DNA of 64,000 bases from Amphiscolops sp. MND2022 (taxonomy: Eukaryota): positions 9,362,001 through 9,426,000 of the forward strand of contig OZ076419.1 in the NCBI GenBank assembly GCA_964187785.1. The letters are read 5' to 3'. A model generated the notes under the pieces. It was not told the origin of the DNA, ran no database searches, and saw nothing but the letters and a program-made list of their open reading frames with translations. Made by a program: the position numbers and the translations under genes. Positions within the stretch are counted from its first letter, which is position 1. Each line of letters begins with the position of its first letter. Positions 20,001-45,716 of the stretch are shown piece by piece.

Positions 20001-23000
20001 CGAATAAAAAAAAACAACGTTTTCGACTCTTCGTTCACCAATCGCGACCGTTCCAAATCAGAAGGGCTTCTTGAAGTGTATTTGCATGAAAAAAAATACC
20101 ATGATATGGATAAAACTTGAAAGGGAGGTTATAAAGAAGTTGGAACATTTTTTTCCGAAACACCAAAATGTAATCAAGAGATCAAAAAAACCATTTCTTA
20201 GTCTGCGCTAGTCAAAAAAGGAAACAGTACACTCTAGTCGCGCTATAAACGAATAATTACAGTAAAAATCCCCCAAAGAAACATGAGAACCAAAAGAAAC
20301 ACTAGCATTAAAGTCGGGTCAAACTTGAGGTCCAACGAAAAAGTGAGTTTTTTCAATCAAAAAAACAATGTTTTTCGATTTTCGCCAACCAATTGCGAAC
20401 GTATCGACTGAAAAGGGCTTCCAGAAGGGTATTTGTAGTGAAAAAGCACCGATAAATGGATAATCCTTGAAAGATAATTATGAAGTTTATCTGTATAAAA
20501 AAGCACCATAAGATAGATAAAACTTGAAAGGGAGGTTATAACTGAGATGGAACATTTTTCAGAATCACAAAAAGGTAATCACGAGCTCAAAAAAACGGTT
20601 TTTATGCTGCGCTAGCCAAGTAAAAAACAGTACACTCTAGTAGCGCGATAAACGAGGAATTGTAATGAAAATACCTCAAAAAAAGCATGAAAACCCAAAG
20701 AAACAACAACATTAAAGTCTGATCAAACTTGTGGTCCAACAAAAAACAAGGATTTTCCAACACAAAAACGTTTTTGACTCCTCGTTCACCAATTGCGATC
20801 GTATGCAATCAAAAGGGCTTCCTGAAGTGCATTTGCATTTAAAAAGCACCGTGAGATAGATAAAACCCGAAAAAAAAGGTTATAACGAAGTAGTAACATT
20901 TTCCAGATACACCAAAAATGTAATCAAGAGCTCAAAAAACACATATCTTAGTCTGCGCTAGCCACGTAAAAAATAGTACATTCTAGTAGCGCTATAAATG
21001 AATAATTGCAGTGAAAATCCCTCAAAAAGAAACATGAGAACCAAAAGAAACACCAACATTAACGTCGGATCAAACTTGAGGTCCAACGAAAAACGAGGAT
21101 TTTCCAACAGAAAAAACAACGTTTTTTGACTCTTCGCTCAGCAATCGAAATCGTAGCAAATTAGTAGGGCTTCTGAAGTGTATATGCATATAAAAAGCAC
21201 CGTGAGATAGATAAAACCCGAAAAAAAATGTTTTAACGAAGTAGGAACATTTTTTCCGATACAACATAAGGGTTTTCAAGAGCTCAAAAAACCCATTTCT
21301 TAGTCTGCGCTAGCCAAGTAAAAAACAGTACATTCTAGTAGCGCTATAAATGAATAATTGCAGTGAAAATCCCTCAAAGAAACATGAGAACCAAAAGAAA
21401 CACCAACAATAAAGTCGAATCAAACTTGAGGTCCAACGAAAAACAAGGTTTTTCCAACAGAAAAAAAACAACGTTTTTGACTCTTCGCTCACCAATCGCA
21501 ACCGTAGCAAATCAAAAAGGCTTCCTGAAGTGTATTTGCATGGAAAAAAGCACCATGAGATAGATAAAACTCGAAAGGGAGATTATGACGGAGTTTGAAC
21601 GTTTTTCAGATACACAAAAAATGTAATCACGAGCTCGAAAGAATCACATTTTCCAAACTGCGCTAGACAAGTAAGGAACAGTACACTCTTGTAGCGCCAT
21701 GAACTAGTAATTGGAGTTAAAACTCCCTAAAAAAACTGGAAAAACCAGAAGAAACACCAATTTTGATGTCATCAAACTTGAGGTTCAACAAAAAATTGAC
21801 TTTTTCCAATAAAAAAAAATGTTTTCCGATCTTCGCCAACCAATTGCGAACATATCGACTGAGAAGTGCTTCCTGAAGAGTATTTGTAGTGAAAAAGCAA
21901 CAATGAATGGATAATCCTTAAAAGATAATTATGAAGTTTATCCGTACAAAAAAGCACCATAAGATAGATAAAACTTGAAAGGGAGGTTATAACGGAGATG
22001 GAACATTCTTCAGAATCACAAAAAGGTAATCACGAGCTCAAAAAAACTGTTTTTATGCTGCGCTAGCCAAGTTAAAAACAGTACACTCTAGTAGCGCGAT
22101 AAACGAGGAATTGTAATGAAAATACCTCCAAAAAGCATGAAAACCCAAAGAAACACCAACATTAATATCTGATCAAACTTGTGGTCCAACAAAAAACCAG
22201 GATTTTCCAACAAAAAAACGTTTTTGACTCTTCACTCAACAACTGCGATCATATCCAATCAAAAGGTCTTTCAGAAGTGTATTCGCATGAAAAAAGCACC
22301 GTAATATGGATAAAACATCAAAGAAATGTTACAACGAAGTTGGAACATTTTTTCAGATACACCGAAAATGTAATCAAGAGCCTGAAAAAACTATTTCTTA
22401 GTCTGCGCTAGCCAAGTAGGAAGCAGTGCACTCTAGTGGCGCTATATACGGATAATTGCAGTAAAAATCCCTCTCAAAGAAACATGAGAACCAAAAGAAA
22501 CACCAACATTAAAGTCGGACCAAGCTTGGTCCAACGAAAAACAAGAATTTTCCAACAGAAAAAAAACAACATTTTCGACTCTTTGCTCACTAATCGCAAC
22601 CGTAGCAAATCAGAAGGGCTTCCTGAAGTGTATTTGCAAAGAAAAAAGCACCGTGATATGGATAAAAATTGGAAGAAAGGTTATAATCAAGTTGGAACAT
22701 TTTTGAGATCCACCAAAAATGTGAACACGAGCTGAAAAATTGCATTCTTTATTCTGCGCATGCCAAGTAAGAAGCAGTGCACTCTAGTAGCGCTATAAAC
22801 GAATAATTGAGGGTAAAAATCTCTCAAAGAAACATGAGAACCAAAAGAAACACCAACATTAAAGTCTGGTCAAACTTGAGGTCCAACGAAAAACAAGGTT
22901 TTTCGAATAAAAAAAAACAACGTTTTCGACTCTTCGTTCACCAATTGCAACCGTTCCAAATCCGAAAGGCTTCCTGAAAAGTATTTGCAAAGAAAAAAGC

Positions 23001-23553
23001 ACCGTGAGATGGAAAAAAATTGGAAGAAATGTTATAATCAAGTTGGAACATTTTTGAGATCCACCAAAAATGTGAACACGAGCTGAAAAATTGCATTCTT
23101 CATTCTGCGCATGCCAAGTAAGAAGCAGTGCACTCTAGTAGCGCTATAAACGAATAATTGCAGTAAAAATCCCTCGAAGAAACATGAGAACCAAAAGAAA
23201 CACCAACATTAAAGTCGAATCAAATTTGAGGTCCAACGAAAAACAAGGTTTTTCCAACAGAAAAGAACGTTTTTTGACTCTTCGCTCAGCAATCGAAATC
23301 GTAGCAAATTAGAAGGGCTTCCTGAAGTGTATTTACATTCAAAAAGCACCGTGAGATAAATAAAACCCGAAATTGTTATAACGAAGTAGGAACATTTTTT
23401 CCGACACACCAAAAATGTAATTAAGAGCTCAAAAAACATTTCTTAGTCTGCGCTAGTCAAGAAAGAAAACGATACACTCCAGTCGCGCTATTAACGAATA
23501 ATTGCAGTAAAAATCCCTCAAAGAAACTAGAAAACCGGAAAAAGCACCAACAG
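17045..23553 (+). repeat. Satellite array, ~350-bp monomer, about 18-19 diverged copies
   Basis: Anchor TTCTTAGTCTGCGCTAG recurs at ~17176, 17531, 17879, 18228, 18577, 18925, 19495, 19845, 20196, 20600, 20946, 21298, 21655, 22055, 22396, 22748, 23100 and 23441. The short ORFs here are repeat artefacts. Confidence 0.95.
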
Positions 23554-27994: not shown

Positions 27995-28435
27995 CCTAAT
28001 TATATGAAAAGACAGACTGTGTAAGTCATCAGACTAGAATATTTCAGAAACCATGAGATCTATATTGTTCGAGAAATACTGTATCGAATTCGAAAAACAA
28101 TGAAACAGCTGATTTAAAATGTATTTTGCAATTCGCAAACATGCGAGGCCGAGAAGAAAGCTCAGACCATGAGGGAATAATCAAGACTCGGATTTTTCTA
28201 AAAGATTGTTTTTCGTCTGAAAAATCATTCAACACAGAGGCGAAGCGGTGCTTCGCAACAAATGACGAAGACATCGATTCAATCGAATGCGTATATATTC
28301 AACAGTTCAACACTTATGCTGTGCAATCGGGAGGCTGCAGGTTCGAATCTCTCTGGGGTTTTGGCTTTATAATTTTAAAACCGTCAACTATAAATTTATC
28401 GCAGGAATCACCAAATAAATCCATACAAATAGTGA

Positions 28436-29815
28436 TGTTAGACGTTATTTTCATAAAAATATGGTGATTTTAGACGTTATTCCCAAAAAAGTGATTTCAG
28501 GCGTTACTCCTCAAAAATAATGAATTTAGACGTTATTCTATGAACAAACGGTGATTTCAGACGTTATTCCAGTAGAATACGGTGTTCTTAGATCTTATTC
28601 TACCAAAAAATAATTTTAGACGTTATTCCTCAAAAATACGGTGATTTTAGACGTTATTCCCAAAAAAGTGATTTCAGGCGTTACTCCTTAAAAATAATGA
28701 ATTTAGACGTTATTCTATGAACAAACGGTTATTTCAGACGTTATTCCATTAGAATACGGTGTTTTTAGATCTCATTCTACCAAAATACAGTGATTTTAGA
28801 CGTTATTCCACAAAAATACGGTGATTTTAGACGTTATTCCCAAAAAAGTGATTTCAGGCGTTATTCCTCAAAAATATTGAATTTAGACGTTATTCTATGA
28901 ACAAACGGTTATTTCAGACGTTATTCCAGTAGAATACGGTGTTCTTAGATCTTATTCTACCAAAAAATAATTTTAGACGTTATTCCTCAAAAATACGGTG
29001 ATTTTAGACGTTATTCCCAAAAAAGTGATTTCAGGCGTTACTCCTTAAAAATAATGAATTTAGACTTTATTCTATGAACAAACGGTTATTTCAGACGTTA
29101 TTTCATTAGAATACGGTGTTTTTAGATCTCATTCTACCAAAATACAAAGATTTTAGACGTTATTCCACAAAAATACGGTGATTTTAGACGTTATTCCCAA
29201 AAAAGTGATTTCAGGCGTTATTCCTCAAAAATATTGAATTTAGACATTATTCTATCAAAAAACTTTTATTAAAGACGTTATTCCAGTAGAATACGGTGTT
29301 TTTAGATGTTATTCTACCAAAATAAAGTGATTTTAGACGTTATTCCTCAAAAATACGGTGATTTTAGACGTTTTTCCCAAAAAAGTGATTTTAGGCATTA
29401 TTCCTCAAAAATAATGAATTTAGACGTTATTCTATCAACAAACTGTTATTTCAGACGTTATTCCAGTAGATTACGGTGTTTTTAGATCTTATTCTACCAA
29501 AATACAGTGATTTTAGACGTTATTCCACAAAAATACGGTGATTTTAGACGTTATTCCCAAAAAAGTGATTTCAGGCGTTATTCCTCAAAAATATTGAATT
29601 TAGACGTTATTCTATCAAAAAACGGTTATTATTCCAGTAGAATACGGTGTTTTTAGATGTTATTCTACCAAAATAAAGTGATTTTAGACGTTATTCCACA
29701 AAAATACGGTGATTTTAGAGGTTATTCCTAAAAAAGTGATTTTAGGCGTTATTCCTCAAAAATAGTGAATTTAGACCTTTTTTCACCAAAAAACGGTTAT
29801 TTTGGATCTTATTCC
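28436..29815 (+). repeat. 30-bp minisatellite with a 6-mer (177-180 bp) higher-order repeat
   Basis: Unit GATTTTAGACGTTATTC-N-AAAAATACGGT. The variant TCCCAAAAAAGTG recurs at 28481, 28658, 28838, 29015, 29195, 29375 and 29555. Confidence 0.95.
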
Positions 29816-29829
29816 AACAAAAATATGAA

Positions 29830-29940
29830 TCTAGACCATCTCCATCTAAAATTTCTGACAATCTTCCAAATTTGGACCATTTCCATCTAAAATTTCCGAC
29901 AATATTCCAAATTTGGACCATTTTCATCTAAAATTTATGA
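29830..29940 (+). repeat. Short ~41-bp tandem repeat (~2.5 units)
   Basis: GGACCATTTCCATCTAAAATTTCCGACAATATTCCAAATTT repeated. Confidence 0.75.
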
Positions 29941-30048: not shown

Positions 30049-31806
30049 TGTCGCAGGCTGCCGCTTGCGATGGGACACGAATCACAACGACTACCAACGA
30101 GCAAGAAGCCGTACCAGGCACTTTACCCACATTTTAGGAGAATTATTCAAAACTTTCAGTAAAACTCACTGTTGTTTTATTACATTCATTATGTATTCGG
30201 ATTTTGGTTTTATACCGCAAAATGAATATTAGTCTGATTAATACCCGTGTTAGAATTCAAACGGTGATGATTATGTTTATATGATGAATTGTTTAGCAGT
30301 GACGTAATGTAATAAAGGCAAGTGTAAAGCTTAACGGATACGAGTTCAAGTGAACAAAACTCCAATTCCGGAGACGTCACTTGAGCTCATTCCGTCAGCC
30401 AATCATAACGCTCTATCCTGCTGTGCATTATACTGTCATATTTGTTTGGCCGTATACGGCCACTTGACGCTATACCTTATTTTGTAAGCGGACCAAAGGT
30501 AAATGGCCGGATTAGGCCATTCAAACTATTAGCTTATGTAATTGTTTAATTTGAGTATGCATGTTATTTAAAGTCATGTAGGATTATATTTGTATTTAGA
30601 AGGCGCTAATGGGGCTATTTAAACCCAATTGATGTAGTTGTGACCACCAGTCATGAAACTCTAAATACTAGTCCAGTGGACTAAACCGGTCACTTTAATT
30701 GGCTGGTACCTTTGTCAAATGGCCGAATTGGGCCACGCTCACCTTTTATTAGTGCATATAATTAGAGTTGCTACCTGATGAATTAGCCTGCGTGTGCAGG
30801 CACGTGCCTTAGATACCTCACATACCTGTTGACACAAATATTACTTGGAAGTGTCTGAACATGTATTTGCCTTGATGTTAATTGTTACGGGAATGCGGAC
30901 TAAACCGTCCCTCGTACTTTGAAGCTATCATGAGTATGTAATTGAGTACATTCTTCAGGAATTCTTCCGACCCTAAATTCCTGAATCACTTTGATGCAAT
31001 AGCTATTTTTCAATCCTCGTAAAATCTCATGATCCTTTAAAATATGTAAACATTTCAATAATATGTGGAAAATGTGAGTGTCATGCCTCAGGAGGTATAT
31101 ATATACACCCCCCTCCTGAGGGGACACAATTTGCTTTCTTTTCATAACGTTCAGTTCATTAATATTACCAGTTTTCCGAACTAATTCAATATTAACCTCG
31201 GACTTTCTTTCTAAATGCCTACTACTAGGAAACAGAAGAAAGCAAGGAAATCTAGAGAAGCAGAAATGCTATCAGACATTGAGAATTTGGATATTATGCT
31301 CGGAGGAAACCACTTTGATAGAAATGAGAGAAGTGAAAGTGTGAGTAGTAATCAGGCCGGTAGGCCAGAAAGCTTATTTGGAGATGAATTTGGAGATGAG
31401 AATGAGAATGAGTTCCCAAACCCGGGAAATAATGGACCTAGCCCAAATACCGAATTAGGCCAAAATTCAATCAGAGAGAGTTCAAGTGTTGAGATCAATA
31501 GACTGTCGAGTGAGTTAAATTCCCGTATATCTCGAGAGATGGATGAAATGATGAATAGCGTCAGTGTTCAGATTCAAAGGGCCATAAATGAGGCAATCAG
31601 TAGTCAAATTTTGCCTCAAATCCAAAATGCAGTTATGGCCGGGTCGGGACAGTTGACCAAAGAGAGATGGAACGTTCCGGCTGAGAGACCAGAAGGATAT
31701 TCCGAAGTGCTGCAAAACTTAGAACCTAGGAACAATTCTAAGAGTAAGCAGGCCAATGACCGTCTCAAAGTTGGATTCACAAGCACGAATTCTCGTGCTT
31801 ACGACA
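30049..31806 (+). repeat. 5' LTR of element A (1758 bp)
   Basis: Matches 43957-45716 with roughly a dozen substitutions and one 2-bp TA indel (by eye, ~99%). Confidence 0.95.
31086..31130 (+). promoter_or_regulatory. Candidate LTR core promoter: TATA-like run inside a 10-bp stem, followed by conserved GGACACAATT
   Basis: CCTCAGGAGG-TATATATATACACCCC-CCTCCTGAGG. The CCTGAG..GGACACAATT motif is also in the B LTRs and the solo LTR, about 85-100 nt before the gag ATG. Confidence 0.5.
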
Positions 31807-31818
31807 TGGTGACAGGAG
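31807..31818 (+). promoter_or_regulatory. Primer-binding site TGGTGACAGGAG
   Basis: Immediately follows the LTR end ACGACA; identical in B (62703-62714, minus strand). The priming tRNA cannot be identified without the host tRNA set. Confidence 0.85.
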
Positions 31819-32925
31819 AAAACGAATCTCCAATCGAAGTTCCTGAGTTTCTCACGGGACGAATGCCATCCACCAGTCATCTCAACAGATCAAATGATGA
31901 CCTTCCCCTGCTCGACACGACGATCCCGGCGCAAAAACGACCCGCTCTGGCACCAGAACAAGACCCGATCAACAGGCTAGCTGACGTCTTGACAAGTATG
32001 CAGAATCGCCCGACAGCCCAGCAACTCACAATCCGCCCAGTCAACTCAAACACTATGACGTTTGACGGCAAAAGTGAGAAGTTCGAGCTGTTTGAAGATT
32101 TATTCCATACGATGATCAAGATGCAGCCTGACATGACGGAACAAATGAAAATTAATCATTTTCATTCCTTGCTGAGAAAGAATGCACTCCAAACATTCAG
32201 AAACATCAGCACTGCAAATAGACAAACTCTTGAGGACGTACTCGTTATTTTCAGACGAAAATACGTCAAACCTGAATCACAGGCAACTGCCAAACATAAA
32301 TGGCACCGCGATCCTTCGATCCTAACACGACCAAATTGCCAGATTTTCTTGAGGAGCTCAATCAAGGAGCAGAAAAGGCCCTTGGAGACAATGCTCAGAA
32401 AATGATTGACAGTCTCCTATATGCCAAACTGCCACCAAAGCTCAAAAGATCAGTAAACATGGCTAGACTTGAGAATGGCTCGTACGATGAAATTGTCGCT
32501 CATCTAGAAAGAGAACTAGAATTGAATGCACTTGAAGAATCAGAAGACCTACCCATGGCGTCAATGACATCATCGGTCACGAAACCAAAAACTGTTCCTT
32601 CTAATACACAAATAAGTGATATTACGTGCAATTATTGTAAGGAAAAGGGCCACATGGTCAAAGATTGTGAAAAATTAAAAAAGAAAAAGGAAAAAGATGC
32701 CCAACAAGGCAAGACGACTCAGAAGAAGACCTATCCTAAATGTGGTACTTGTGGCAAGACGAACCATCCGGAGGAGAGATGTTGGCAAGGGGCAGGTGCG
32801 CACCTTAAACTTAAACGCACCAGACCAGAAGACTCGTCGGACAATGACCCCGACTCCAAAACCTTAAAATCGAACTACAGACCAGCATCTTCCAACAGCC
32901 AATCCTCATCAAGTAAAGATGAGTC

Positions 32926-32935
32926 AAAAAACTAG
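32926..32935 (+). promoter_or_regulatory. Programmed -1 ribosomal frameshift site A_AAA_AAC at the gag stop
   Basis: TCA AAA AAC TAG. The -1 frame (CTA at 32932) is open and in frame with the pol ATG at 33034. The same heptamer plus TAA is present in B (61588-61597). Confidence 0.85.
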
Positions 32936-33033
32936 CTTCGCCACGACTCCACTATGACCAACTAGTCTCTGTCCGACAATACATCAAATCGGACCCTCCA
33001 ACTAAAAACTTTCATAACTATCAGCAACAATTA

Positions 33034-36000
33034 ATGGGCTATCCTTCTGTTGTCTGGCAGCAGCAGATGGAAAAAGCTACCATTATTACTTACAATAATA
33101 CCCATTTGTTCCAGAAACCAATTCCTGTATGGGATCCTGATTACACATCTGCTTTCAATAGCCGATTCAGGCCCATTCCCTTGGTAGACGATTACAACCC
33201 TACCTACATAGACCCCGATTATGGACGAGATCCCTATTGGGACACGGAACTCTACAACCAAGATCTGCTACAATTCCAATACGTCATTGATGATATCGAA
33301 CTCTACAATAAATTAGCCCATGAAAATCCTCCAATCACCCACAACAAGAAAACTAGAGCATTGATTGAAACCTGGCAAATGAATGATGGCACAAGCCATC
33401 CGGTGTTCCCAAATCCCCTGGGGACCGAGACTACCGAAAACATGGAAGAAACAGTCCCACAGTCGCTATTAGATGAAAGTCAGTTCCAAAACGTTCTTAT
33501 TACCAGAGATGGTGAACCGGACTGCATACCCCTGTCCACCAACATAAATCTGAAATGCAAGAAACGCATGCTATATTTCCCCATGGATTTTGGGGAATTG
33601 ACCATAGACGGACTTATCGACACTGGTGCATTATCCAGTGCAATCCCAGAGATGGACCTCCGGAAAATCAGACTCTTATCGCCACAATCAGTAATCCGGG
33701 AAGGTCCGCCTCCAAACTTCCAGATAATGGTCGCAAATGGGCAACTAGAGACTCCCAAGAGTACAATAGAGCTCAAATTCGAAGTTGGTGACATAGAGTT
33801 CCATGAAATTTTTATAGTAATGGAACACTTGACAGGACCGATTATAGGACTGATGTTTCCACAGAGAAATCATACAGTACTGGACATGAGACAAGGAATA
33901 CTGAACTTTCCGTTCTTTTCAATGCAGCTCAAAACAGCTGATCATAAATACTCGAACGTGCTAGAGCCAATTCTAAACCCTACTGAAATAACCATTCCGC
34001 CAAACGACAGAGTCCTGATTAGGACCAATTCCTTCTTATACCCTGAAAACACGGTCACAGGAATTTTGCAACCGAGCGACCTTCTCCATGAAGAAGGCGA
34101 CATCACATTCTGTCCAGCCTTGGTCACCTTGAATGACGGCAATATATTGATACCGGTGAATAACTTCACAGACCACCCTTACAAGCTCAAAAAGGGACTC
34201 CATATTGCTAGTTTTTCAGTCATGACGCCAGAACAAATGAAATATGTCAAACCGGTAGACCCGGCATCAACCTGGCATTTGTTGCAAAACGACCAAGAGC
34301 AAGCAGCCCATTACGTCAGTAGCCTGATCAAGATGAACAAAAATTCACAAAACTCCGAAAACTACTGGTTCCCAACTCCGGAAAATCCAGGGAATCCAGA
34401 AGAACACACTCCAATCCAGAAAAGAATCCTCCGCGAACTACAAGCCCTACAGGACCTAGAATCCCTTGATCCCACGAAAGACGAGGAATCTAGGGGAAAA
34501 TTCTTGGGAAATTTTGATTGGAAAGACTCCACCCTAATCCTTGAAGAGAAAGCCAAAATTGAAGAAATGCTAGTGGAATTTCACGACATTTTTGCGAGAC
34601 ACAGATTTGATATAGGCATGAATGAGGAATTCAAGGTGAAATTGACGCCTAAGGACGATTCCCCAGCCTATAGCCAAAGCCTCCCTGCGCCAATAAACTT
34701 GAAAGAGGACATATTAGTCGAATTAGCCATGCTCCATAAATATGGCATAATAACTACTTTACCGTTCTCGAAATACGCCAGCCCAATATTCGCGCAAAAG
34801 AAACCAAATGGGAAACTGAGACTTCTGGTTGACTTGAGAAAAATCAACAACCTAATCTCTGATGATTATATAAACAATAACCACCCAGTCAGTACCTTAG
34901 TTGATGCCGCTCAACACTTAGCGGGGAAAAAACTGTTCTGTAAATTAGACTGTTCACAGGCATACCACTGCCTGCCGATGGCTGACCAGCGATCAATTGA
35001 AATGTTGGCCTTCAATTTCGCCAGCCGCACATTTGCCTACAGACGATTGGCACAAGGCCTTAGTAGGGCGCTGTCCGCATTCTCCAGTTTCATGAGGGAA
35101 TACCTCGACAAAGTCATAAAAGCGGATCAGTGTGCCCAGTACGTGGACGATATCGGCATCGCAGCCAACGACGCTGACCATCTCATTGCTAACCTAAGAG
35201 CAACTTTCAAATGCATTCAGGAAGCAGGCCTTAAATTGACGATGCACAAGTGTCATTTTGGTGCCACAGAAATTGATTTCCTCGGACGAACGATTACTCC
35301 ACAAGGCGTCAAACCCCAACGGCAGAACGTTCAGAATTTTCTAGAAAAAACCAAATTTCCAAAGTCGAAAAAGGTTTTGCAAAGATATTTGGGTTTCCTG
35401 AACTACTACCGAAACTACGTCCCAAGACTGTCCGAACGCCTTGCTCCATTCTACAAGATGCTGAAAAGTGACGAAAAAGTCCTAGTATCAAGAGAATTGG
35501 TACAGCAATTTGAGGAAATCAACCGAGCTCTGGACAAATGTTGCGACTTAGCCTTACAACAACCCATTCCTAACAAGCAGATTGCACTCATGACAGATGC
35601 AAGTTTCGGAGCTGCAGGATACGCAGTACTCATTGAAGATGACCCGAGTCAGAAATTCACGTCAATCCGCAAATCATATGCACCGGTCGCTTATGGTTCA
35701 AAAACCTTCACCCCAGCCCAGATAAAGATGTCAATTTATGCAAAAGAATTTCTTGCGATTTATTTCGCATTCAAAGAATTTGGGCATATTTTTTGGGGAG
35801 CGCCGAAACCGGTCATAATTCTAACCGACAACAAAGCCGTAACAAGATTCTTTCAGACGAAAGTCGTACCCCCAGCTCTGTGGAATGCATGCGACTATGT
35901 AATTCAGGTCAATTTTGTCATTGCGCACATCCCAGGAGCACAGAATACGGCAGCGGATTACTTGTCCCGATTGGAAGCAGACCCAAAGGACAAATTAGTA

Positions 36001-38139
36001 ATGAAAATCCGAGAAGATGTACAAACGTTGCCAATAGAAATAAACGTCCAATCAGCAGGAGTCTCACAGGAAGAGCATATCTTCTACACCAACGACGACG
36101 ATGAGACTGAAGAACAATATTGGGCGAGAAAAGAAGCAATCAGGAAAAATCCTGTAATCGAAGACCCTACAGTTACAATACAAACTCTTTCCACTAATTT
36201 AGCCAAACAACAACCTGAAATACAAGTCCGATTGAGGAAAACAAACCAGATAATTATTAAGCAATCCAAGGATGCAGTATTACAACACTTGAAGGCGAAA
36301 CTCCTTCATGAAGACTACTCAGAAAACATACTGCAACAGGACGCTCGGTACAGGCATTATGCTAACAATCTGGAACGAATTGTCATCAAAGAAGACATCC
36401 TCACAAGGCAATATTTTGATGAAAAAGGGAATTTAAAGTACCACCAAATCCTTCTCCCGCAACATTTGCTGCAGGAATTACTCCAGTCCTTACACGGGAC
36501 AGCTCACAACCATCCGGGTATTTCAAAAATGCTGCAGGAGATCAGACAGAGGTATTACTACCCTAACATGGCGAAATATGTTAAAAAGTGGGTAGAAGGG
36601 TTCGAACAATGCGCAAAGGACAAACGAGTCCCAAATGCAACAATCACGCCCGAGCTACTTAACTTGCCGGAATGGGACCTTGGACCCGAAGACGCAATGC
36701 AAATTGACTTATTGCCGAACCTTCCCCCAAGTGGAGGATATGAAAATGTATTAACCGCGATTGATGTCTTTTCTCGATATTTGTTTGCATATCCGCTCAC
36801 AGATGCATCAGCGATCAATGTAGCCAAAGCACTCATTGATATTATGACCAAACATTCCTACTTACCGACGACGCTCATTACGGACAAAGGAACTGCCTTC
36901 ACTTCCACGATTATTGCAAAAATTACCCAAGTTTTAGGAATTACCCTAAAATGTGCAACGACAAAGCACCCGCAAACTATCGGGAAATTGGAGCGCACAC
37001 ATGCCTCATTGAAAACAAACTTGAAAATGGCATGTGGGGAATATCGCCGACAATGGCACAAATACTTGCCATTAGCAGTTCTGAACCACAATACTAGTTA
37101 TCATGCCAGTATCGGATGTGAACCGACAAGAGTGTTCCATGGAAGAAGCCCATACAACATCTTGGATCACAAGCTTGGAACAAATCCAAACGAGCAAATC
37201 CATCCGACTACTGAATTCGCAGAAGAAATCCAAAATCGGACAAAGCTCCTTATCGACAAGACGAAGCAAAACATCATGCAGTCATATATCAAATATAAGG
37301 AGTATTACGATCGAAAAGCCAAAGCCGCCCCACTCAAGGAGGGCGATTACTGTTTTGTATTACAGCCAAAAGCGGATCACCAAGGATCCAAAATTCCCTT
37401 CAGAGATTATCGATGGGTTGGACCATTCATAGTCCAGAAAGCTTTACCTAATGAGAACTACATCGTCCGCAGACTTAATACGAATAAAACGCAGATCTTG
37501 CATCGAATTCGTCTCAAAAAGTTCGTTCCTAATCAGCCGCTCGAGGACAATTTTCGAGAAGAGAGATTGCAGCCGGACGAAGACATAATCATTCCACAGG
37601 ACGACTTATACGTAATAACGTGGGACACAAATTTTGGCGAACAGCTAGCTACACGAGGCAGCGAGCCGATTCCGGCTAGCTTGACGAATGGCGAACGGCC
37701 GAACACGGCACAAGCGAATACAAGTGATGCAAGCGAGAATGAAAGTGATTACATAATCACGACTGATTGTCCGAATGACGTCAACGACGCACCACGCAGT
37801 AGAAATGAAGAAATGGAAAATGACGTCAGCAATGCTAATGAAGCTAATGAAGCAAATGAAAATGAAAACCCTGATTGGCCAAATCCGGCCGTTCCCCCAA
37901 AGAATCAAGAAAAATCTCTGCCGAATACGGCTGAAGGATTGAAAAATGACAAAAACTTTCCAGAAAGAAATTCGATCAATGAAAGCGATGCACAAAAGTC
38001 TCCAAAAAGGGGGGACGATATTATCGTGCCCGAAATATCAGAAAATGATGCTAGAAATGAAAGTCTGAGCCCTAGAGGAGGGAAATATAATCTCAGGCCC
38101 AATCCTAATCCAAACTATTCAGAAGACTTCAGATACTAA
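33034..38139 (+). CDS. pol: pol polyprotein (1701 aa from the first ATG; true start is the frameshift at 32932): protease, dUTPase-like insert, RT, RNase H, integrase
   Basis: LIDTGA (33619); YVDD (35140); LMTDAS RNase H; integrase H-x-H..C (one Cys replaced by Phe, EGFEQC); core QIDLL..AIDVFSRY..TDKGTAF..LER; GPF motif RWVGPFIV. Confidence 0.97.
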   Translation: MGYPSVVWQQQMEKATIITYNNTHLFQKPIPVWDPDYTSAFNSRFRPIPLVDDYNPTYIDPDYGRDPYWDTELYNQDLLQFQYVIDDIELYNKLAHENPPITHNKKTRALIETWQMNDGTSHPVFPNPLGTETTENMEETVPQSLLDESQFQNVLITRDGEPDCIPLSTNINLKCKKRMLYFPMDFGELTIDGLIDTGALSSAIPEMDLRKIRLLSPQSVIREGPPPNFQIMVANGQLETPKSTIELKFEVGDIEFHEIFIVMEHLTGPIIGLMFPQRNHTVLDMRQGILNFPFFSMQLKTADHKYSNVLEPILNPTEITIPPNDRVLIRTNSFLYPENTVTGILQPSDLLHEEGDITFCPALVTLNDGNILIPVNNFTDHPYKLKKGLHIASFSVMTPEQMKYVKPVDPASTWHLLQNDQEQAAHYVSSLIKMNKNSQNSENYWFPTPENPGNPEEHTPIQKRILRELQALQDLESLDPTKDEESRGKFLGNFDWKDSTLILEEKAKIEEMLVEFHDIFARHRFDIGMNEEFKVKLTPKDDSPAYSQSLPAPINLKEDILVELAMLHKYGIITTLPFSKYASPIFAQKKPNGKLRLLVDLRKINNLISDDYINNNHPVSTLVDAAQHLAGKKLFCKLDCSQAYHCLPMADQRSIEMLAFNFASRTFAYRRLAQGLSRALSAFSSFMREYLDKVIKADQCAQYVDDIGIAANDADHLIANLRATFKCIQEAGLKLTMHKCHFGATEIDFLGRTITPQGVKPQRQNVQNFLEKTKFPKSKKVLQRYLGFLNYYRNYVPRLSERLAPFYKMLKSDEKVLVSRELVQQFEEINRALDKCCDLALQQPIPNKQIALMTDASFGAAGYAVLIEDDPSQKFTSIRKSYAPVAYGSKTFTPAQIKMSIYAKEFLAIYFAFKEFGHIFWGAPKPVIILTDNKAVTRFFQTKVVPPALWNACDYVIQVNFVIAHIPGAQNTAADYLSRLEADPKDKLVMKIREDVQTLPIEINVQSAGVSQEEHIFYTNDDDETEEQYWARKEAIRKNPVIEDPTVTIQTLSTNLAKQQPEIQVRLRKTNQIIIKQSKDAVLQHLKAKLLHEDYSENILQQDARYRHYANNLERIVIKEDILTRQYFDEKGNLKYHQILLPQHLLQELLQSLHGTAHNHPGISKMLQEIRQRYYYPNMAKYVKKWVEGFEQCAKDKRVPNATITPELLNLPEWDLGPEDAMQIDLLPNLPPSGGYENVLTAIDVFSRYLFAYPLTDASAINVAKALIDIMTKHSYLPTTLITDKGTAFTSTIIAKITQVLGITLKCATTKHPQTIGKLERTHASLKTNLKMACGEYRRQWHKYLPLAVLNHNTSYHASIGCEPTRVFHGRSPYNILDHKLGTNPNEQIHPTTEFAEEIQNRTKLLIDKTKQNIMQSYIKYKEYYDRKAKAAPLKEGDYCFVLQPKADHQGSKIPFRDYRWVGPFIVQKALPNENYIVRRLNTNKTQILHRIRLKKFVPNQPLEDNFREERLQPDEDIIIPQDDLYVITWDTNFGEQLATRGSEPIPASLTNGERPNTAQANTSDASENESDYIITTDCPNDVNDAPRSRNEEMENDVSNANEANEANENENPDWPNPAVPPKNQEKSLPNTAEGLKNDKNFPERNSINESDAQKSPKRGDDIIVPEISENDARNESLSPRGGKYNLRPNPNPNYSEDFRY

Positions 38140-38366
38140 GAATTGAATTTTCCCGGAAATGGGAATTCTTTTCTTTTAGCTTTGTTTTTCCAAGCCCCTC
38201 TGAGAACTTCTTTTGATTAAATACTGGGGCATTCCAAAGGATCCCTAATAAAGAATAAATATGGGATCAAATCATCAAGAAAACAAAGTAGAAATATAAA
38301 TACGGCAATAAAACAGAAGAAATTAACAAGTTTACAACATGGAAGTACATAAATACATATGTACAT

Positions 38367-41300
38367 TTACTCATTAGAACTTGATTGGGATCGTCTACCC
38401 GCTGTTGGAGAACTGGAAAATCCAACAAGGCTGCTGCTCTATGAGCTGCTCTATCAAATGATCTATGAGCCCTAAAAACTCATCTCGATAAATGAACTCA
38501 GCATCAACGGTTACCCAAGAACGAAGCTGGAATGTATTGTAGAGCAACTCGAAGTGACGTAAAGCAGAAGCAGGTGGTTGTTTGAATAACACAACAGGAT
38601 CGAAAGCAGCAAGTCCTTTGATGATGTGGGTGTTGAGCCCAGAATGCTTGTGTAATCCATCCAAAAGGTGGCCTATATACTTGAGTCCGTCTGTGATGAA
38701 CTCCTTCTGAAGTTCTTTGGCAGTCTTTTGAATAGCAGCCGCTTCGCTCTTCTTGCCCGAATGCAACCCCTCTGCCCTCTGTTTGCAAACGTGAGGAACT
38801 TTACTGGACAATCTGAGCCTGGTAAGGAAGTCGTCTCCGTCCATAAGGGTCCCGTCTGCTGATTTGAAAGAGAGCAAATCGAACCAAGAACCTTCGGCAG
38901 AGATTGTGTCCGCAGTGAATGCTCGAGAACAAATCCGATGTATGAAGCGGCTGGTCTCTCCACATACATAGAATGAGGCATCGCGGCGTTGGGCCAAGTT
39001 GACAGAGAACTGGATACGTCTACAAATACAAAACCATGCCCAAAATGGGATACTACCTCAACTTCTACACCTGACAATAGGTATACTAACAATCGTTGAC
39101 CAGCTTGGAGAAGAAATCCAACTTGATGGTGAGAAACTCATCACAAATGAGTGACCACTCGAAACTTTGCACCTGCAACAAAGAAATCAACTCAATGGGC
39201 ATTTGGTTGTCAGACCAAAGATGATCCACTACGGGGATTTAGGGATACTGTACATAGTGGTGCTACATGACAATTAAAGCGACGCAATTACTTACTCTAC
39301 CCCTCACGCCTTGTCCTTGTTGTCGAGGTGCATGTATTGTCAAAGACCTCTGTACAGCCTTCCATTCACGAATTAGTTCCAGACAGAGGACTGGCAAAGT
39401 CAATAGGTTCAACTTGCAGGTTCGTATACCCTAAACAAGACCTATGGTGTACTTACTATATCAATATCACTGATCCATAGCCCTCCACAACCTGAACCCG
39501 ATCAATACCCTACAGAAACCCGGATCATGCCTGTTCAGGGAAGAAAGAAATCACTTACATAGGATAATTCGGGACTCCGCATCGCCCATTCCTCCCTGAG
39601 AGAGCCTCCTAGAGAGATGACAAGCCCCCTTAACACTGAAAAGAAATCAATGTGTCCGAAGATAGAGCGACTGGACTTATGCATCAGAGTCTCTAAGGAA
39701 AATTGGCTGAATTGGAAACAGGACTGGACTCCCTTTGAGAAGTATTCCGATTGATCAACCACACGGATAAAATCGGCGGGACACCCAGAACTGGCGACTA
39801 TGTCCACTTTAGGCGAAATTGAGGACAACAACCGAGCCAGGGATCCCAATTCCCCGTTTAGATTTGGAGAAGGTAGCCCACTCCGACAGATGAAGACCCT
39901 GCATAAGGTGTTTTCCTTCCAAAACCGGACTGACATGAAGCGATAACTGCCCACGTCCTCGAACTCGAGCCCAAGGCATTGCTCCTTCGTGATGTGATTG
40001 GCTATGTCACCCAGAGCGCAGTTGAAGAAGTGTTGGAAAATGACCTGAAAAGGACATAAGGGAAATCAACTCCTGGATGTGACATAACCGCCTAAAACGG
40101 CAGCTTAACGATATGATACTTACAGAGAATCGCTCTGCACTCCAGTCAAAGTCACATAGTGCAGCCTGAAAGTCCGTGTATGAACTGACCCTCGTCCATA
40201 GATTCCGGAGAAGATCGCGAATCAGGCGTGACCAAGGGATCAGTTCTGCCTTTGATGAAGTCGTCATAAAAGGGGAATCGCTCCCCTATGTCAACTAATT
40301 CAGCATGTATGAAGCAAGGCATTTCTTTGGCCAACTCGAGCCTGTTCATGATTCGACCGTCTCGCCCTCTGACCCTATGTTGAACTTTCCCTGTGACTGG
40401 GTCTACGCTTTTCAAGTATTCATAGCGCCAGCGCTGGTCCTTGCGCAGATGTTTCTCAGTTCGGTGGTGACGAAGAATTTCCCCCGGGCCTTTGGAACGT
40501 ATGGAGAATTTCTTTTTACATATATGGCACCATACCATATGTGAATTGTGTAGCGGGTCTGCAGGTCCTGAGATAAAAGACCGGGTCCACCCAATTGTTG
40601 AGAAAAACTCTTCTCTCATTGGCACTCCTCGTCTCTTCACCCTTTTCTTCTTCTGAGGTTGTTTCTTCTTAGAGCCTGTATGGGTCTTTTCAGCAATGGC
40701 GTGATCCCTTACTTGCGACAAAGTTTCATCGAGACAATTGGCATCACTGGTATCAGGATTTTCCAGAGATCGACTAGAAGGCCCCGGTACTTCACTCGGA
40801 TCCTTAAGCATGGAAGTTCCTGCTCTGGCAAAGTTTTGCTCAATTAAAGCTAACTCCCCTGCACTGTCCGATTCCTCATGAAAGGACGTGTCACCTGATT
40901 CGGTTCCTCCACTCATTTCTGCGTCAGTCTGAGAATCATAGCGGACTGGGGTAGTGCACCCTTCGGAGCCACTATCTCCACTACTTGAAGGATAAGGCGT
41001 TTGTGCGCGCCTGAAAGTTTTGAATTGATCAGTCCGTGACTTGGACGTCGCTGGGGCTCCTTTCACTGCCGATACAACCATATGCTCCATCGTGTTATAA
41101 GACAAACTCACAGTCTCATTGGTGAGCACCCTAAGGAGGTGGTACAGCTGCGGTTCAGTAAGTGTTATTACGGGGTGACCCTGCGGCAAAGTAATGGGCT
41201 TGGCTTCTCCAAAATACTGTTTGAAAGTGGCTCTACTCCTTCCAGACAGGTTATGTAACTTGGGACCAGTGACCCCAAGCTGGGAGGAGGAAGTCCCAGG

Positions 41301-42182
41301 GACCTGTGGGTCCTGGATGCCAAAATCGGATTCCTGCGTCTCTTCTGCAACTGAGTCCATGCTTCTCAATGTGTCCCGGTAACCATACAAATCTATCTGT
41401 TGATCACTACTCTCGTTCAACTGGTCCAACTCACCATAGTCAGAGACGTATGTTGTCGCTGTGACTGTTCCAGGCAACGGGGGGGCATCGTGGACAGAGG
41501 AACTGTTGTCTTCGTCTTGCTGGAGGAATGACACCTTACTTGTCTCATTGGGAACTCCTTCAACAGGCAGCAATTCCGGCAAGGTTGCATCAGGAGGCCC
41601 AGCAATCTCAAGCCCTGATTCCAATTGAGACAAACTAACTGTGGGGACTGTGCAACTGGCGTGGGGTATTGGAGTGCTAGACCGGGTGATTGGCATGTCT
41701 GCAGACAACTCAGTGCCGTGGGAGGCCTTCACTGCGCCCTCTCGCCTAACTTCTACTTTTTCTTCCACTATCTCGTTAGACAACTGCGTTTTCTGCATAT
41801 GTTCGACCATCTCGTCTGCATACGCCGTAACGTCAATGTTACTGTCTACGCTATGTGGGGAGATGACCTCAGCAACTTGATCCTGGCCCGAACGTTCAGA
41901 TGATTGGGAATTGGAATTGAGTCCTTGAGACTCAACTGATGGACCTACTAGTGGGGGTAGGATCCTGGTAATCTGGGAAGAAGAAACCAATGGAGGAAAT
42001 GGAGGGGGAGAAGGAACCAAGTTTCGAGTTGTACCCGGAACGGGAACGGAATACATGGATGAAATAACTTCGGTGGGATTGGCGGAAGCAGGGTTGGTTG
42101 GTGTATGAGAATCATCTAAATTCTGGCGATCTAAACACAAAGAGATGAAATTTGGCGGTATGCTTCCTCGATAGAAATCCAT
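38367..42182 (-). pseudogene. Antisense spliced accessory gene of element A (disordered N-terminus, NLS, BED-like zinc finger, hAT-transposase-like body), damaged by deletions
   Basis: ORFs 40152-42242, 40007-40267, 39535-39954 and 38395-38997 are collinear and homologous with B ORFs at 52205-56349. Conserved start MDF(Y/F)xGSxPPNFI; introns at 40045-40123 and 39173-39295. Confidence 0.8.
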
Positions 42183-43253
42183 TTGCCGCGTCAGAAGACT
42201 TCCGGAAGCAGTCTTGAAAATTTGAATGAAACGTGCTATCACGTGTTCTCTGATGGAAACAGGAAGCGCTTAATGAACGAAATTTAGCCCTGATCAAGCC
42301 AAGTTAGTTCAAAATAAAAATCCAGACCAACCTGTATTCGAAGACATCCTGCTGAGATAATTGAATCCACTGAGGATCTACCCAAATTCGGATGAGAAAA
42401 TTGGGGATGATGGCCGGACTGGGACAACAGATGGGGAGGAGGCTCGGATGGCTACAGAGAATGAAGGAGAAGTCCACAACTGTTCTGGAGCCCCAGGTAG
42501 ATAAAAGGACTAGCAAAAGGTATAAGAATCGAGTATAAAGGAATTCGAATGGTAATGGTAGTACAAATGAAATAAATAAGCAATGGAAGAAATGAAAGTT
42601 AGAGATCGTGGCTGAAGGTTTACCAGACTAATTTTATTTGATTATCTACATATTTAAATCTGTACACGGAGTCTGCCAGCGAAATATACAGGGCGTATCT
42701 CGCTATTTACAACCTTGTTACAATTAGTGGCCGATTATGGCCGTTTACCCCAACTTATGTTGCCGTTTTGTTCAGTTTTCCTAGTTACCTTAGTTAGATT
42801 TTCGCCATTTTAGTTATTCAAACTTATTATTTTCCGCCATCTTTATTATTCATTTTTCCAAATTTATCGAAGCTCAAATTTGATTGGCTGAAGCCATTTC
42901 AGTGAGTTTCATCCGACAAGTGCCGTTAATTGCTATCAAGCTTGATGTTGATTACCCACTTGAAGTGGAATTATTTGTTGTTGTCAACTTAACACCTCTT
43001 CGCATACTCACTTGAGAGAGTGAGAAAGGGGGTTCCATTCCGAATTTCAAAGGACAAATAAGCCGCTGAGATATTCCATTCTAGAAAGTTTACGACGGAT
43101 CAGGGCGATTGACCATGGTCTCTCCCGCCGAAATGGAACTCCGGGAAAATAGCCTGAATTGGCCTGAAGAAAATTTTGACAAATTCATTCAACTTTGAAT
43201 CCTGCAAGCAACAAGTCGCTCTGCGAATCAACAAAATTGCAAAAAAGATAATA

Positions 43254-44045
43254 ATGGCTAAATTTAACTTAGCAAGAAAGCTTTTCGACTTAGAAGAATC
43301 GGACTCAGAAGCCTCCGTAAATTCAGTCATCTACCTATCGAGTGACGAGGAGGAAGACACCTCATCTACCTCATGGGATTCCGATTGGTCCACGGACACC
43401 GAGGCTATCATAGAGAGAATCGAGAGGGAAGTTAAGTCAAGCCCAATTTTGATCGCAGGTCGCAAGATGACTGTGGAGGGGCAGGCTACAGAATCAGCAG
43501 CTGGACCAAGTAATCTTCAAATGCGGCCGCCTTCGATTCCGAAATTGGGATTCAAACACTTTGACGAGAAACTCCTGTATGCGCCGATGAGGAAGGCAGA
43601 AAGAACCCGGATAGAACTTTGCAACACAATTCTACCAGTGTTGGAATCGCCGTTGTCTCCGCCCGAACATGAGAGAGGGCCGTCCCAAGACGTGCTCATG
43701 GAACAGCCAGTTAGCACCAGCTTCCACGCATCTTACCACATCCAACAAGTACAGCCGTATTCGGATCTTAGTAAACAGTTGGGCCGTGGATGTATGGTCT
43801 GTGGAAGATCAGTGGACGAAATTAAACAAGAGAAGGTGAATTGGTACATGAGCAGATCTACAACGCGCAGTGAACCGGCATACATAACGGACTTGAGGAG
43901 AGAGGCCTACGAAAATGGTCTACATGCCGGAAGTCTTCTTTTCCTAGCACCCGCAGTGTCGCAGGCTGCCGCTTGCGATGGGACACGAATCAATACGACT
44001 ACCAACGAGCAAGAAGCCGTACCAGGCACTTTACCCACATTTTAG
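43254..44045 (+). CDS. ORF3 of element A (~263 aa, unknown function), last ~29 codons inside U3
   Basis: Intact frame with a homologue intact in B (50348-51133). Acidic VIYLSSDEEED and WDSDWSTDTE blocks, plus FHASYHI..CMVC. Confidence 0.8.
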   Translation: MAKFNLARKLFDLEESDSEASVNSVIYLSSDEEEDTSSTSWDSDWSTDTEAIIERIEREVKSSPILIAGRKMTVEGQATESAAGPSNLQMRPPSIPKLGFKHFDEKLLYAPMRKAERTRIELCNTILPVLESPLSPPEHERGPSQDVLMEQPVSTSFHASYHIQQVQPYSDLSKQLGRGCMVCGRSVDEIKQEKVNWYMSRSTTRSEPAYITDLRREAYENGLHAGSLLFLAPAVSQAAACDGTRINTTTNEQEAVPGTLPTF

Positions 44046-45716
44046 GAGAATTATTCAAAACTTTCAGTAAAACTCACTGTTGTTTTATTACATTCATTAT
44101 GTATTCGGATTATGGTTTTATACCGCAAAATGAATATTAGTCTGATTAATACCCGTGTTAGAATTCAAACGGTGATGATTATGTTTATATGATGAATTGT
44201 TTAGCAGTGACGTAATGTAATAAAGGCAAGTGTAAAGCTTAACGGAAACGAGTTCAAGTGAACAAAACTCCAATTCCGGAGACGTCACTTGAGCTCATTC
44301 CGTCAGCCAATCAGAACGCTCTATCCTGCTGTGCATTATACTGTCATATTTGTTTGGCCGCATACGGCCACTTGACGCTATACCTTATTTTGTAAGCGGA
44401 CCAAAGGTAAATGGCCGGATTAGGCCATTCCAACTATTAGCTTATGTAATTGTTTAATTTGAGTATGCATGTTATTTAAAGTCATGTAGGATTGTATTTG
44501 TATTTAGAAGGCGCTAATGGGGCTATTTAAACCCAATTGATGTAGTTGTGACCACCAGTCATGAAACTCTAAATACTAGTCCAGTGGACTAAACCGGTCA
44601 CTTTAATTGGCTGGTACCTTTGTCAAATGGCCGAATTGGGCCACGCTCACCTTTTATTAGTGCATATAATTAGAGTTGCTACCTGATGAATTAGCCTGCG
44701 TGTGCAGGCACGTGCCTTAGATACCTCACATACCTGTTGACACAAATATTACTTTGAAGTGTCTGAACATGTATTTGCCTTGATGTTAATTGTTACGGGA
44801 ATGCGGACTAAACCGTCCCCCGTACTTTGAAGCTATCATGAGTATGTAATTGAGTACATTCTTCAGGAATTCTTCCGACCCTAAATTCCTGAATCACTTT
44901 GATGCAATAGCTATTTTTCAATCCTCGTAAAATCTCATGATCCTTTAAAATATGTAAACATTTCAATAATATGTGGAAAATGTGAGTGTCATGCCTCAGG
45001 AGGTATATATATATACACCCCCCTCCTGAGGGGACACAATTTGCTTTCTTTTCATAACGTTCAGTTCATTAATATTACCAGTTTTCCGAACTAATTCAAT
45101 ATTAACCTCGGACTTTCTTTCTAAATGCCTACTACTAGGAAACAGAAGAAAGCAAGGAAATCTAGAGAAGCAGAAATGCTATCAGACATTGAGAATTTGG
45201 ATATTATGCTCGGAGGAAACCACTTTGATAGAAATGAGAGAAGTGAAAGTGTGAATAGTAATCAGGCCGGTAGGCCAGAAAGCTTATTTGGAGATGAATT
45301 TGGAGATGAGAATGAGAATGAGTTCCCAAACCCGGGAAATAATGGACCTAGCCCAAATACCGAATTAGGCCAAAATTCAATCAGAGAGAGTTCAAGTGTT
45401 GAGATCAATAGACTGTCGAGTGAGTTAAATTCCCGTATATCTCGAGAGATGGATGAAATGATGAATAGCGTCAGTGTTCAGATTCAAAGGGCCATAAATG
45501 AGGCAATCAGTAGTCAAATTTTGCCTCAAATCCAAAATGCAGTTATGGCCGGGTCGGGACAGTTGACCAAAGAGAGATGGAACGTTCCGGCTGAGAGACC
45601 AGAAGGATATTCCGAAGTGCTGCAAAACTTAGAACCTAGGAACAATTCTAAGAGTAAGCAGGCCAATGACCGTCTCAAAGACGGATTCACAAGCACGAAT
45701 TCTCGTGCTTACGACA
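43957..45716 (+). repeat. 3' LTR of element A (1760 bp), including a 204-aa gag-N-terminus ORF (45125-45739) that runs into the flank
   Basis: Starts TGTCGCAGGCTGCC and ends ACGACA, followed by TSD CTGAT. Confidence 0.95.

Follow-up and report, generated by a model that had tools for sequence, protein, structure and literature searches.

Two related retrotransposons with divergent accessory genes

The DNA analysed here, a 64-kb stretch referred to below as the window, contains two LTR elements that are related and point in opposite directions, element A on the forward strand and element B on the reverse strand. Their features are as follows.

30049-45716 (+): element A; LTRs of 1.76 kb with ends TGTCG..CGACA
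30049..31806 (+): 5′ LTR of A, with the start of gag inside it at 31215
31807: primer-binding site TGGTGACAGG of element A, directly after the 5′ LTR
31215..32935 (+): gag of A, with zinc knuckles; one frame change splits the frame
32923..38139 (+): pol of A, in the PR-RT-RH-IN order of Ty3/gypsy, open
38395..42182 (-): spliced antisense gene of A, three coding exons; lower bound approximate
42183..43235: spacer between the divergent accessory genes, with a palindrome at 42729-42742 and an inverted CCAAT at 42883
43236..43253 (+): likely N-terminal extension of ORF3, peptide IAKKII, with an ATT start in the context C-AAA-ATT-G
43254..44045 (+): ORF3 of A from its first AUG, 263 aa, with evidence of selection
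43326..43355 (+): SIM-like motif VIYL-SSDEEE with CK2-type serines
43620..43976 (+): conserved C-terminal part of ORF3, with C123, SPxSPP, H162, C180-x2-C183, a predicted hairpin at residues 187-225 and C241
43942..43956 (+): plus-strand primer position, within ORF3; the sequence in A is C-rich (CCCGCAG)
43957..45716 (+): 3′ LTR of A, TGTCG...CGACA; its first 89 nt code for the end of ORF3
from beyond 64000 down to 48712 (-): element B
48712..50436 (-): 3′ LTR of B
50348..51151 (-): ORF3 of B, AUG at 51133 and likely ATT start at 51151; 261 aa from the AUG
52199..56349 (+): antisense gene of B, damaged in exon 1 (stops and frame changes, 6 in all) and in exon 3 (one frame change)
30448, 30505, 30721, 37877, 42729, 44356, 44413, 44629, 50005, 51651, 56822: GGCC-N6-GGCC sites

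The TG..CA ends of the LTRs, the target duplication (CTGAT), the primer-binding site and the PR-RT-RH-IN order of pol identify the carrier as a Ty3/gypsy LTR retrotransposon. The two LTRs of A are 99.1% alike; the 3′ LTR opens with TGTCGCAG at 43957 and matches the 5′ LTR at 30049. In relatives gag is a single frame of 560-590 codons. The start of A's gag lies about 590 nt into the 5′ LTR, and the gene reads through the primer-binding site (31215-31830); with ORF3 entering the 3′ LTR, the LTR is coding at both of its ends. A third related LTR remnant, at 12872-13347 and 14517 on the reverse strand, shares the TGTCGCAG end and also has a gag-like start. Satellite arrays lie beside element A at 17071-23552 and 28384-29852, with units of ~350 nt and ~31/178 nt.

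Between pol and the 3′ LTR stand two divergent accessory genes, and the spacer of about 1 kb that separates them is likely a two-way internal promoter, a putative assignment. In lentiviral nef and foamy-virus Tas/Bet, 3′ accessory ORFs likewise run across the polypurine tract into U3, and foamy accessory genes also use an internal promoter. The nef- or bel-like position proposed for ORF3 in an earlier note on this DNA is borne out by distant lineages, in which a candidate polypurine tract, a short G tract, lies inside ORF3 and directly before the LTR. In the clade of A and B the sequence before the 3′ LTR is CCCGCAG instead of a purine tract, and the site is synonymous-constrained in both elements. 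Plus-strand priming in this clade may be unusual.

ORF3 is a protein-coding gene under purifying selection

The earlier note had described ORF3 as an intact non-Env accessory frame at 43254-44045, ending 89 nt inside the LTR, with an open counterpart in B. All of this agrees with the sequence, in which every motif that it named is also present. The ORF3 of B is open and 66% identical to that of A. The argument that ORF3 is the only accessory ORF unbroken in both elements carries little weight: B's pol has 6 frame changes and 4 stops, and at that rate of damage a stretch of 783 nt would be expected to take 1.6 breaks, with P(0) = 0.21. The other accessory frames are not separate ORFs but three exons of one spliced antisense gene, which is damaged in both A and B.

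Better evidence comes from substitution patterns, for which all dN/dS values are Nei-Gojobori estimates. Between A and B the synonymous sites of ORF3 are saturated (pS 0.87) while pN is 0.21. Among 16 chosen subfamily pairs, which share branches and are not independent, ORF3 dN/dS is 0.04-0.25 in 12; three further pairs are saturated and one is near-identical (0.71 at dS 0.016). The dN/dS check suggested earlier, when made between subfamilies, comes out in favour of a gene. For pol, 12 of 13 pairs give a ratio of 0.01-0.09, and the remaining value, 0.26, comes from one short match. Variants shared within three subfamilies have non-synonymous to synonymous counts of 14:42, 12:39 and 31:40 against a neutral 3.3:1, with copies picked by similarity, a choice that favours intact ones. 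Near-identical copies of A's own subfamily give dN/dS of 0.67-1.1, which is uninformative because dS is ~0.01 and the mutations post-date insertion. Constraint at the DNA level is confined to codons 231-240, across the LTR edge (pS 0.19 versus 0.63-0.90 elsewhere), so that by this measure part of the conservation of ORF3 at the LTR junction acts on DNA. ORF3 is almost certainly a real protein-coding accessory gene under purifying selection. Its non-Env character also stands, given the dN/dS of 0.04-0.25 and the lack of a transmembrane stretch: the highest 19-residue hydropathy is 1.33 in A, and 1.6 is reached in 3 of 115 sequences. There is no furin site (R-x-K/R-R) in A.

ORF3 relatives share a gene order but exchange modules

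A search of the 1.07-Gb assembly returned 8008 first-look candidates; the 145 that were scored all matched. Database searches retrieved 189 and 190 ORF3-like proteins, with 372 clusters at 50% identity, and neither the 120 matches listed per homologue search nor the listed cluster members bear a name or a Pfam domain. Lineages of ORF3 that are only ~30% identical coexist in the same genome. One database relative has a best genome match of 40% and is therefore probably from another host, and two metagenome contigs carry further relatives. The order gag-pol, spliced antisense gene, ORF3 and LTR is common to relatives that are ~30% identical: pol, the three antisense exons and ORF3 follow one another at 12 of 13 distant loci, the remaining one being rearranged, and the LTR start, when checked against the 5′ LTR, was confirmed at six of the seven distant loci with upstream DNA. 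On these comparisons ORF3 stands for a family of proteins without a name, which has persisted in deeply diverged branches of a high-copy element. Two pairs of genome matches (L143/L144 and L055/L058) are tandem units of 2.6-2.9 kb, with one ORF3 copy each and >99% alike, and several further pairs resemble tandem ORF3 units.

Trees of ORF3, of the three antisense regions and of integrase contain the same three clades. Within single pairs (L100/L101, L102/L103, L099/element B), pol, the antisense gene and ORF3 differ strongly in dS; between L100 and L101, for instance, dS is 0.1 in ORF3 and saturated in antisense exon 1. Judged from these differences, module exchange is frequent, with breakpoints in the spacers. 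That ORF3 and the antisense gene recombine apart, as seen among close subfamilies, argues against tight one-to-one co-evolution of the two.

A likely non-AUG start of ORF3

Upstream of the first AUG, an in-frame peptide of the form I-A-K-K-hydrophobic-hydrophobic-x-x-R/K-F/Y/H is found in all three clades and in a metagenome contig (L187). The matching extension in B lies at 51151-51134. The Ile codon is ATT, ATA or ATC in 132 of the 135 loci that could be anchored (among 144 open ORF3 frames), and the anchor pattern ignores both this codon and its context. Among 20 representatives, all have A at -3 and 19 have G at +4, which makes a strong start context; one has an in-frame AUG further upstream. 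Over the six extension codons, identity by codon position is 0.77/0.95/0.44, a profile partly built in by the anchor, compared with 0.28/0.31/0.33 upstream. In-frame stops occur as near as three codons before the Ile codon. Splicing was rejected as a source of the upstream peptide, as four of the nine representatives with a close stop have no AG between the stop and the Ile codon. A frameshift into the ORF3 frame was likewise dismissed, the slippery run not being kept. The simplest reading, and probably the right one, is that initiation occurs at the AUH codon (ATT at 43236 in A), six codons before the AUG. A conserved non-AUG start of this kind would be missed by annotation tools.

The SIM-like motif

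SUMO-interacting motifs (SIMs) consist of a four-residue V/I/L core with a Ser/acidic tail, in parallel or anti-parallel orientation, and the motif is a loose one (PMC12751080, available text). A core of this kind with an acidic/Ser tail arises in 0.26% of shuffles of the whole ORF3 protein and in 1.1% of shuffles of its first 60 residues, 17 of which are D/E. Among relatives, 97 of 112 sequences have an acid-flanked SIM in one or the other orientation, compared with 4.0 expected from shuffles. By strict rules, site 1 alone is found in 67 of these 112 sequences, site 2 alone in 30, both in none and neither in 15, most of the latter being near misses. Site 1 is a V/I-V/I-x-I/L core before SSD(E/D), whereas site 2 is an acid-I-E/Q-V-I/L core ~20 residues downstream; they fit the parallel and anti-parallel patterns of the published description in its available text (PMC12751080). 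The ORF3 core has at least three hydrophobic residues out of four and acidic or phosphorylatable flanks, as in the definition of a SIM. In site 1 the hydrophobic positions are maintained, and the free position takes different residues (Y, C, I, W, N, V, D, L, S). The Ser-Ser pair persists in 75-76 of 76 distant relatives. By the model-based proxy the region is disordered, with pLDDT <50 at residues 21-43 and no secondary structure.

Site 2 is confined to one clade of 40 rows in a quick tree, where the SIM is reversed; the strict count finds the acid-I-E-V-I core in 30 of these 40, and most of the others are near misses. On this distribution the swap comprised a single loss and a single gain, and is suggestive but short of statistical proof. 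The tiny Fisher p-value of the swap is no real test because it stems from one evolutionary event. The SIM-like motif pointed out earlier is thus conserved across lineages that are ~30% identical, and one clade has a compensating second SIM. The phospho-SIMs of PML, DAXX, PIAS and ZNF451, as far as the available sources describe them, have the same four-residue V/I/L core and Ser/acidic tail in either orientation; for ORF3, known from sequence, the likeness is one of motif only. A SUMO gene, interrupted by one intron, is present in the host (L119, 1590-2321); no other locus in the genome matched its first exon. We consider it rather likely that ORF3 binds SUMO through this candidate SIM. Against this reading stand the looseness of SIMs as motifs and the commonness of acidic Ser-rich tails with a hydrophobic patch.

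Conserved Cys/His residues and predicted fold

Five residues of the C-terminal part are kept in distant relatives (n=79): C123 in 75 of 77, H162 in 79 of 79, C180 and C183 in 77 of 79, and C241 in 78 of 78. The zinc motif of the earlier note, H-x3-H followed by CxxC, loses the first of its two His. Both His of H-x3-H are present in 87 of 117 near relatives, so that H158 is lost in a quarter of these, and position 158 is mostly P/S/A in the 79 distant ones; an H-x3-H zinc finger is accordingly rejected, which leaves another set of five candidate ligands. On this conservation pattern we regard C123, H162, C180, C183 and C241 as candidate metal ligands. H139, W41 and W45 are not kept in distant relatives either, and the blocks WDSDWSTDTE and IEREVKSSPILIAGR, which had been taken as conserved, are specific to A's own clade. 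An RxL cyclin-docking motif, RKLF, found in 83 of 94 near relatives, was discarded, for only its Phe survives in distant lineages.

The full-length model of ORF3 is poor (pLDDT 52, pTM 0.24), with residues 21-43 and 62-91 unstructured. A model of residues 115-263 built with 115 sequences (pLDDT 64, pTM 0.40) contains a confident two-helix hairpin at 187-225, after the CxxC. Structure prediction, which had been proposed as a check, delivered this hairpin and no fold match that stood out. H162 and C241 fall in low-confidence parts, and a metal site is therefore absent from the model. Pfam returned nothing at cut-off for ORF3 alone or for alignments of 50 and 115 members; the best hint, zf-C2H2_12 (E 0.005; seen at E ≤1 in 15 of 50 members), lies below it. 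A PDB sequence search and Foldseek at E 0.001 against the PDB and a viral library, run with poor models, gave no match, and the best result of a wide fold search (Z 6.0) was a generic two-helix hairpin. Because the models are poor, this blank shows neither a new fold nor a lack of relatives. A language-model search placed piggyBac-derived proteins nearest to ORF3 (0.85-0.87), a further point against the SUMO-binding adaptor proposed below. The N-terminus of ORF3 is basic and then acidic, and no conserved nuclear localisation signal was identified in the protein.

The antisense gene and the palindromes

In young copies the exon frames of the antisense gene are open, at ~675, 180 and 400 codons (~1250 in total). 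In A, exon 1 is damaged towards its end, and exon 3 is damaged too; a further intron-containing copy lies at L097 3857-8087 (-). At the first junction, a loose pattern applied to 34 stretches found GT(A/T)AGT donors in 8 and pyrimidine-AG acceptors in ~20. Where it could be estimated, dN/dS of the antisense gene is 0.03-0.19, one misaligned 42-codon pair (0.56) being left out, and by these values the gene is under purifying selection in all three clades. Exon 1 encodes a C-x2-C..H-x4-H finger, which we take to be BED-like (C2H2/BED-like); Pfam gave nothing at cut-off for it. The last exon draws hAT dimerisation-domain clusters (0.88-0.90), which is a lead only.

The window contains 11 copies of GGCC-N(5-8)-GGCC versus 0.66 expected, all with a 6-nt spacer and all inside A or B. 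Element A has three in each LTR, one in the spacer and one near the end of pol (37877). Searches for spaced palindromes, whose counts are inflated by the relatedness of the elements and include some sites within coding sequence, ranked GGCC-N6-GGCC first in clade I (46 versus 0.7, in all 13 elements). In clade III the top rank went to GGAC-N5-GTCC (35 versus 0, in five of five); clade II has both types (15 and 17, in six of six). In three clade-I elements, the first 1.3 kb of the LTR is free of palindromes. An RNA hairpin is disfavoured as an explanation, given that mixed GGAC/GGCC half-sites would break pairing without compensation. We consider the palindromes to be candidate, clade-specific target sites.

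The trees do not single out one protein as the partner of the palindrome type, because all genes share the three clades. In a thin test, two of 89 columns of the finger track the type, against none for a control split, and one of 142 ORF3 columns does so, against six. The position just after the first His of the finger is basic in elements with the N6 palindrome and non-basic in those with N5. The palindromes, which point to sequence-specific control, suit the zinc-finger protein of the antisense gene no less than they suit ORF3, which makes ORF3 less likely to be a lone transactivator than the partner of a DNA binder.

Proposed function and alternatives

Our preferred reading, tentative and at somewhat under an even chance, is that ORF3 is a likely nuclear, mostly disordered SUMO-binding adaptor that, together with the antisense zinc-finger protein, would keep the element's promoters active against SUMO-dependent silencing. 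That ORF3 exerts nuclear control over the element's own transcription we consider an evenly balanced proposition. The direction of the effect, in favour of expression, is a more guarded suggestion, as a SIM could equally recruit repression. Under the adaptor reading, the 1-kb spacer would transcribe both accessory genes outward, and the AUH codon would yield ORF3 at a low rate, alongside a shorter AUG form. The SSD(E/D) run would be phosphorylated by CK2 and the SIM would dock on SUMO, while the BED-like antisense protein would sit as a dimer on the palindromes. The Cys/His-plus-hairpin domain would tie ORF3 to the antisense-protein complex, where the SIM could compete with or divert host SIM-bearing silencing factors. 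The full scheme would be a two-part, sequence-specific counter-silencing switch, in which a captured, intron-containing hAT-like finger gene marks the element via the palindromes and the non-AUG-started ORF3 jams SUMO silencing there; conceivable as it is, we judge it unlikely in its entirety.

Several other readings share part of this evidence. ORF3 could itself be a sequence-specific transactivator in the manner of foamy-virus Tas, with an acidic region and a Cys/His-hairpin dimer on the palindromes. The 17 D/E among 60 N-terminal residues, the conserved CxxC followed by a confident helical hairpin, and the overlap with U3, which like the spacer contains palindromes, would suit such a protein, but R215 is the sole C-terminal basic residue conserved across clades, no DNA-binding fold was matched, ORF3 columns track the palindrome type less often (1/142) than they track the control split (6), and a clear zinc finger is encoded next door; we find this improbable. 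An equally improbable reading turns ORF3 into a self-limiting repressor, whose SIM would bring SUMO-dependent silencing to cap copy number or to restrict expression to some cells. It draws on the same motif, on the recruitment of SetDB1-type repression by SUMO (10.1101/533091, available text) and on the weak non-AUG start, which would suit a tightly dosed regulator. Yet the family is very high in copy number, with thousands of first-look candidates, and none of the lineages examined has lost ORF3; a role that promotes copying fits this at least equally.

As a small, disordered and motif-rich protein with scattered Cys/His, placed across the polypurine tract and U3 as Nef is, ORF3 may instead act after transcription, and its free recombination against the antisense gene would be compatible with this. 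ORF3 would then remove a SUMO-modified restriction factor or help the cDNA complex to reach chromatin, in analogy to lentiviral Vpr, Vif and Nef or herpes ICP0. It lacks a RING or any other ligase domain as well as a glycine for myristoylation, most members contain a single SIM, and no sequence or fold likeness to these proteins emerged from Pfam, the PDB or the viral fold library, all of which gives the idea a low probability. Distinctly improbable is a reading of the SSD(E/D) block as a CK2 phospho-docking or histone-binding stretch for a non-SUMO partner, with an incidental hydrophobic core: the serines and acids do stay even where the core of site 1 is lost, but the clade without that core gained a separate acid-I-E-V-I core, as expected if selection keeps a SIM. 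Finally, an origin as a reduced Env or membrane protein, or a frame kept only by overlapping DNA signals, is largely refuted and very unlikely. The position is that of Env, residues 223-241 are mildly hydrophobic and codons 231-240 are constrained at the DNA level; the hydropathy values and the missing furin site of A speak against a membrane protein, and over the rest of the gene synonymous sites are saturated while amino acids are kept. What is established is that ORF3 is a gene under selection with a constant position in a cassette of two genes, together with the conservation of its SIM-like motif and five Cys/His residues and the presence of the clade-specific palindromes.

Comparison with known systems and significance

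The likeness of ORF3 to Nef, Tas and Bet is one of position only: Pfam, the PDB and the viral fold library, searched with poor models, gave no sequence or fold match, and ORF3 lacks a myristoylation site. For Ty3/gypsy elements, the available text of three reports describes additional ORFs in the stretch from pol to the 3′ LTR, namely, gene23 of plant Grande, RIRE2, TRP28 of Retand and the ORF3 types of bdelloid rotifers (PMC7264820, PMC11963269, PMC5408684). According to the same sources, the antisense gene of Grande has its own promoter and a nuclear product, and TRP28 is a predicted DNA binder. Like ORF3, these genes occupy the interval between pol and the 3′ LTR and are kept in most copies. 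The present cassette differs, as far as those accounts go, in its animal host, in having two divergent genes instead of one and in the introns of the antisense gene. ORF3 differs from the plant and bdelloid ORFs described there in being sense, in not being Env, GDSL or DEDDy, in overlapping the primer site and U3, and in matching no Pfam family at cut-off.

VANC proteins of the Arabidopsis VANDAL DNA transposons are anti-silencing factors associated with family-specific short motifs that differ between related families (PMC6719617, PMC5735166, available text). Both systems, to the extent covered there, combine an element-encoded accessory protein with family-specific short motifs enriched in the element, and the dominant type here changes between clades. 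Unlike VANC, the cassette belongs to a retrotransposon and not to a DNA transposon, and no sequence likeness was detected. Its motifs are dispersed spaced palindromes and not tandem arrays, and its DNA binder is probably the neighbouring gene, all of this being read here from DNA. In the literature covered we found no description of this cassette, nor of an accessory protein of a retrotransposon that carries a SIM; a prior annotation elsewhere is possible.

Few transposon-encoded counter-defence factors have been named, all of them in plants according to the available text of PMC6719617. SUMO is needed for piRNA-guided transposon silencing in Drosophila (10.1101/533091, available text), and a SUMO-reading retrotransposon protein would therefore offer direct access to the ways in which animal elements withstand or adjust silencing in the nucleus. 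The candidate target sites differ between clades, which makes swap experiments simple. On the evidence of its conservation, motif and setting, ORF3 is a real, unnamed accessory family with a plausible counter-silencing role. Even if the mechanism is wrong, the unnamed family, the clade-specific candidate sites and the likely, conserved non-AUG start stand; if it is true, the two-part switch would be the equivalent, in an animal retroelement, of VANC in plants.
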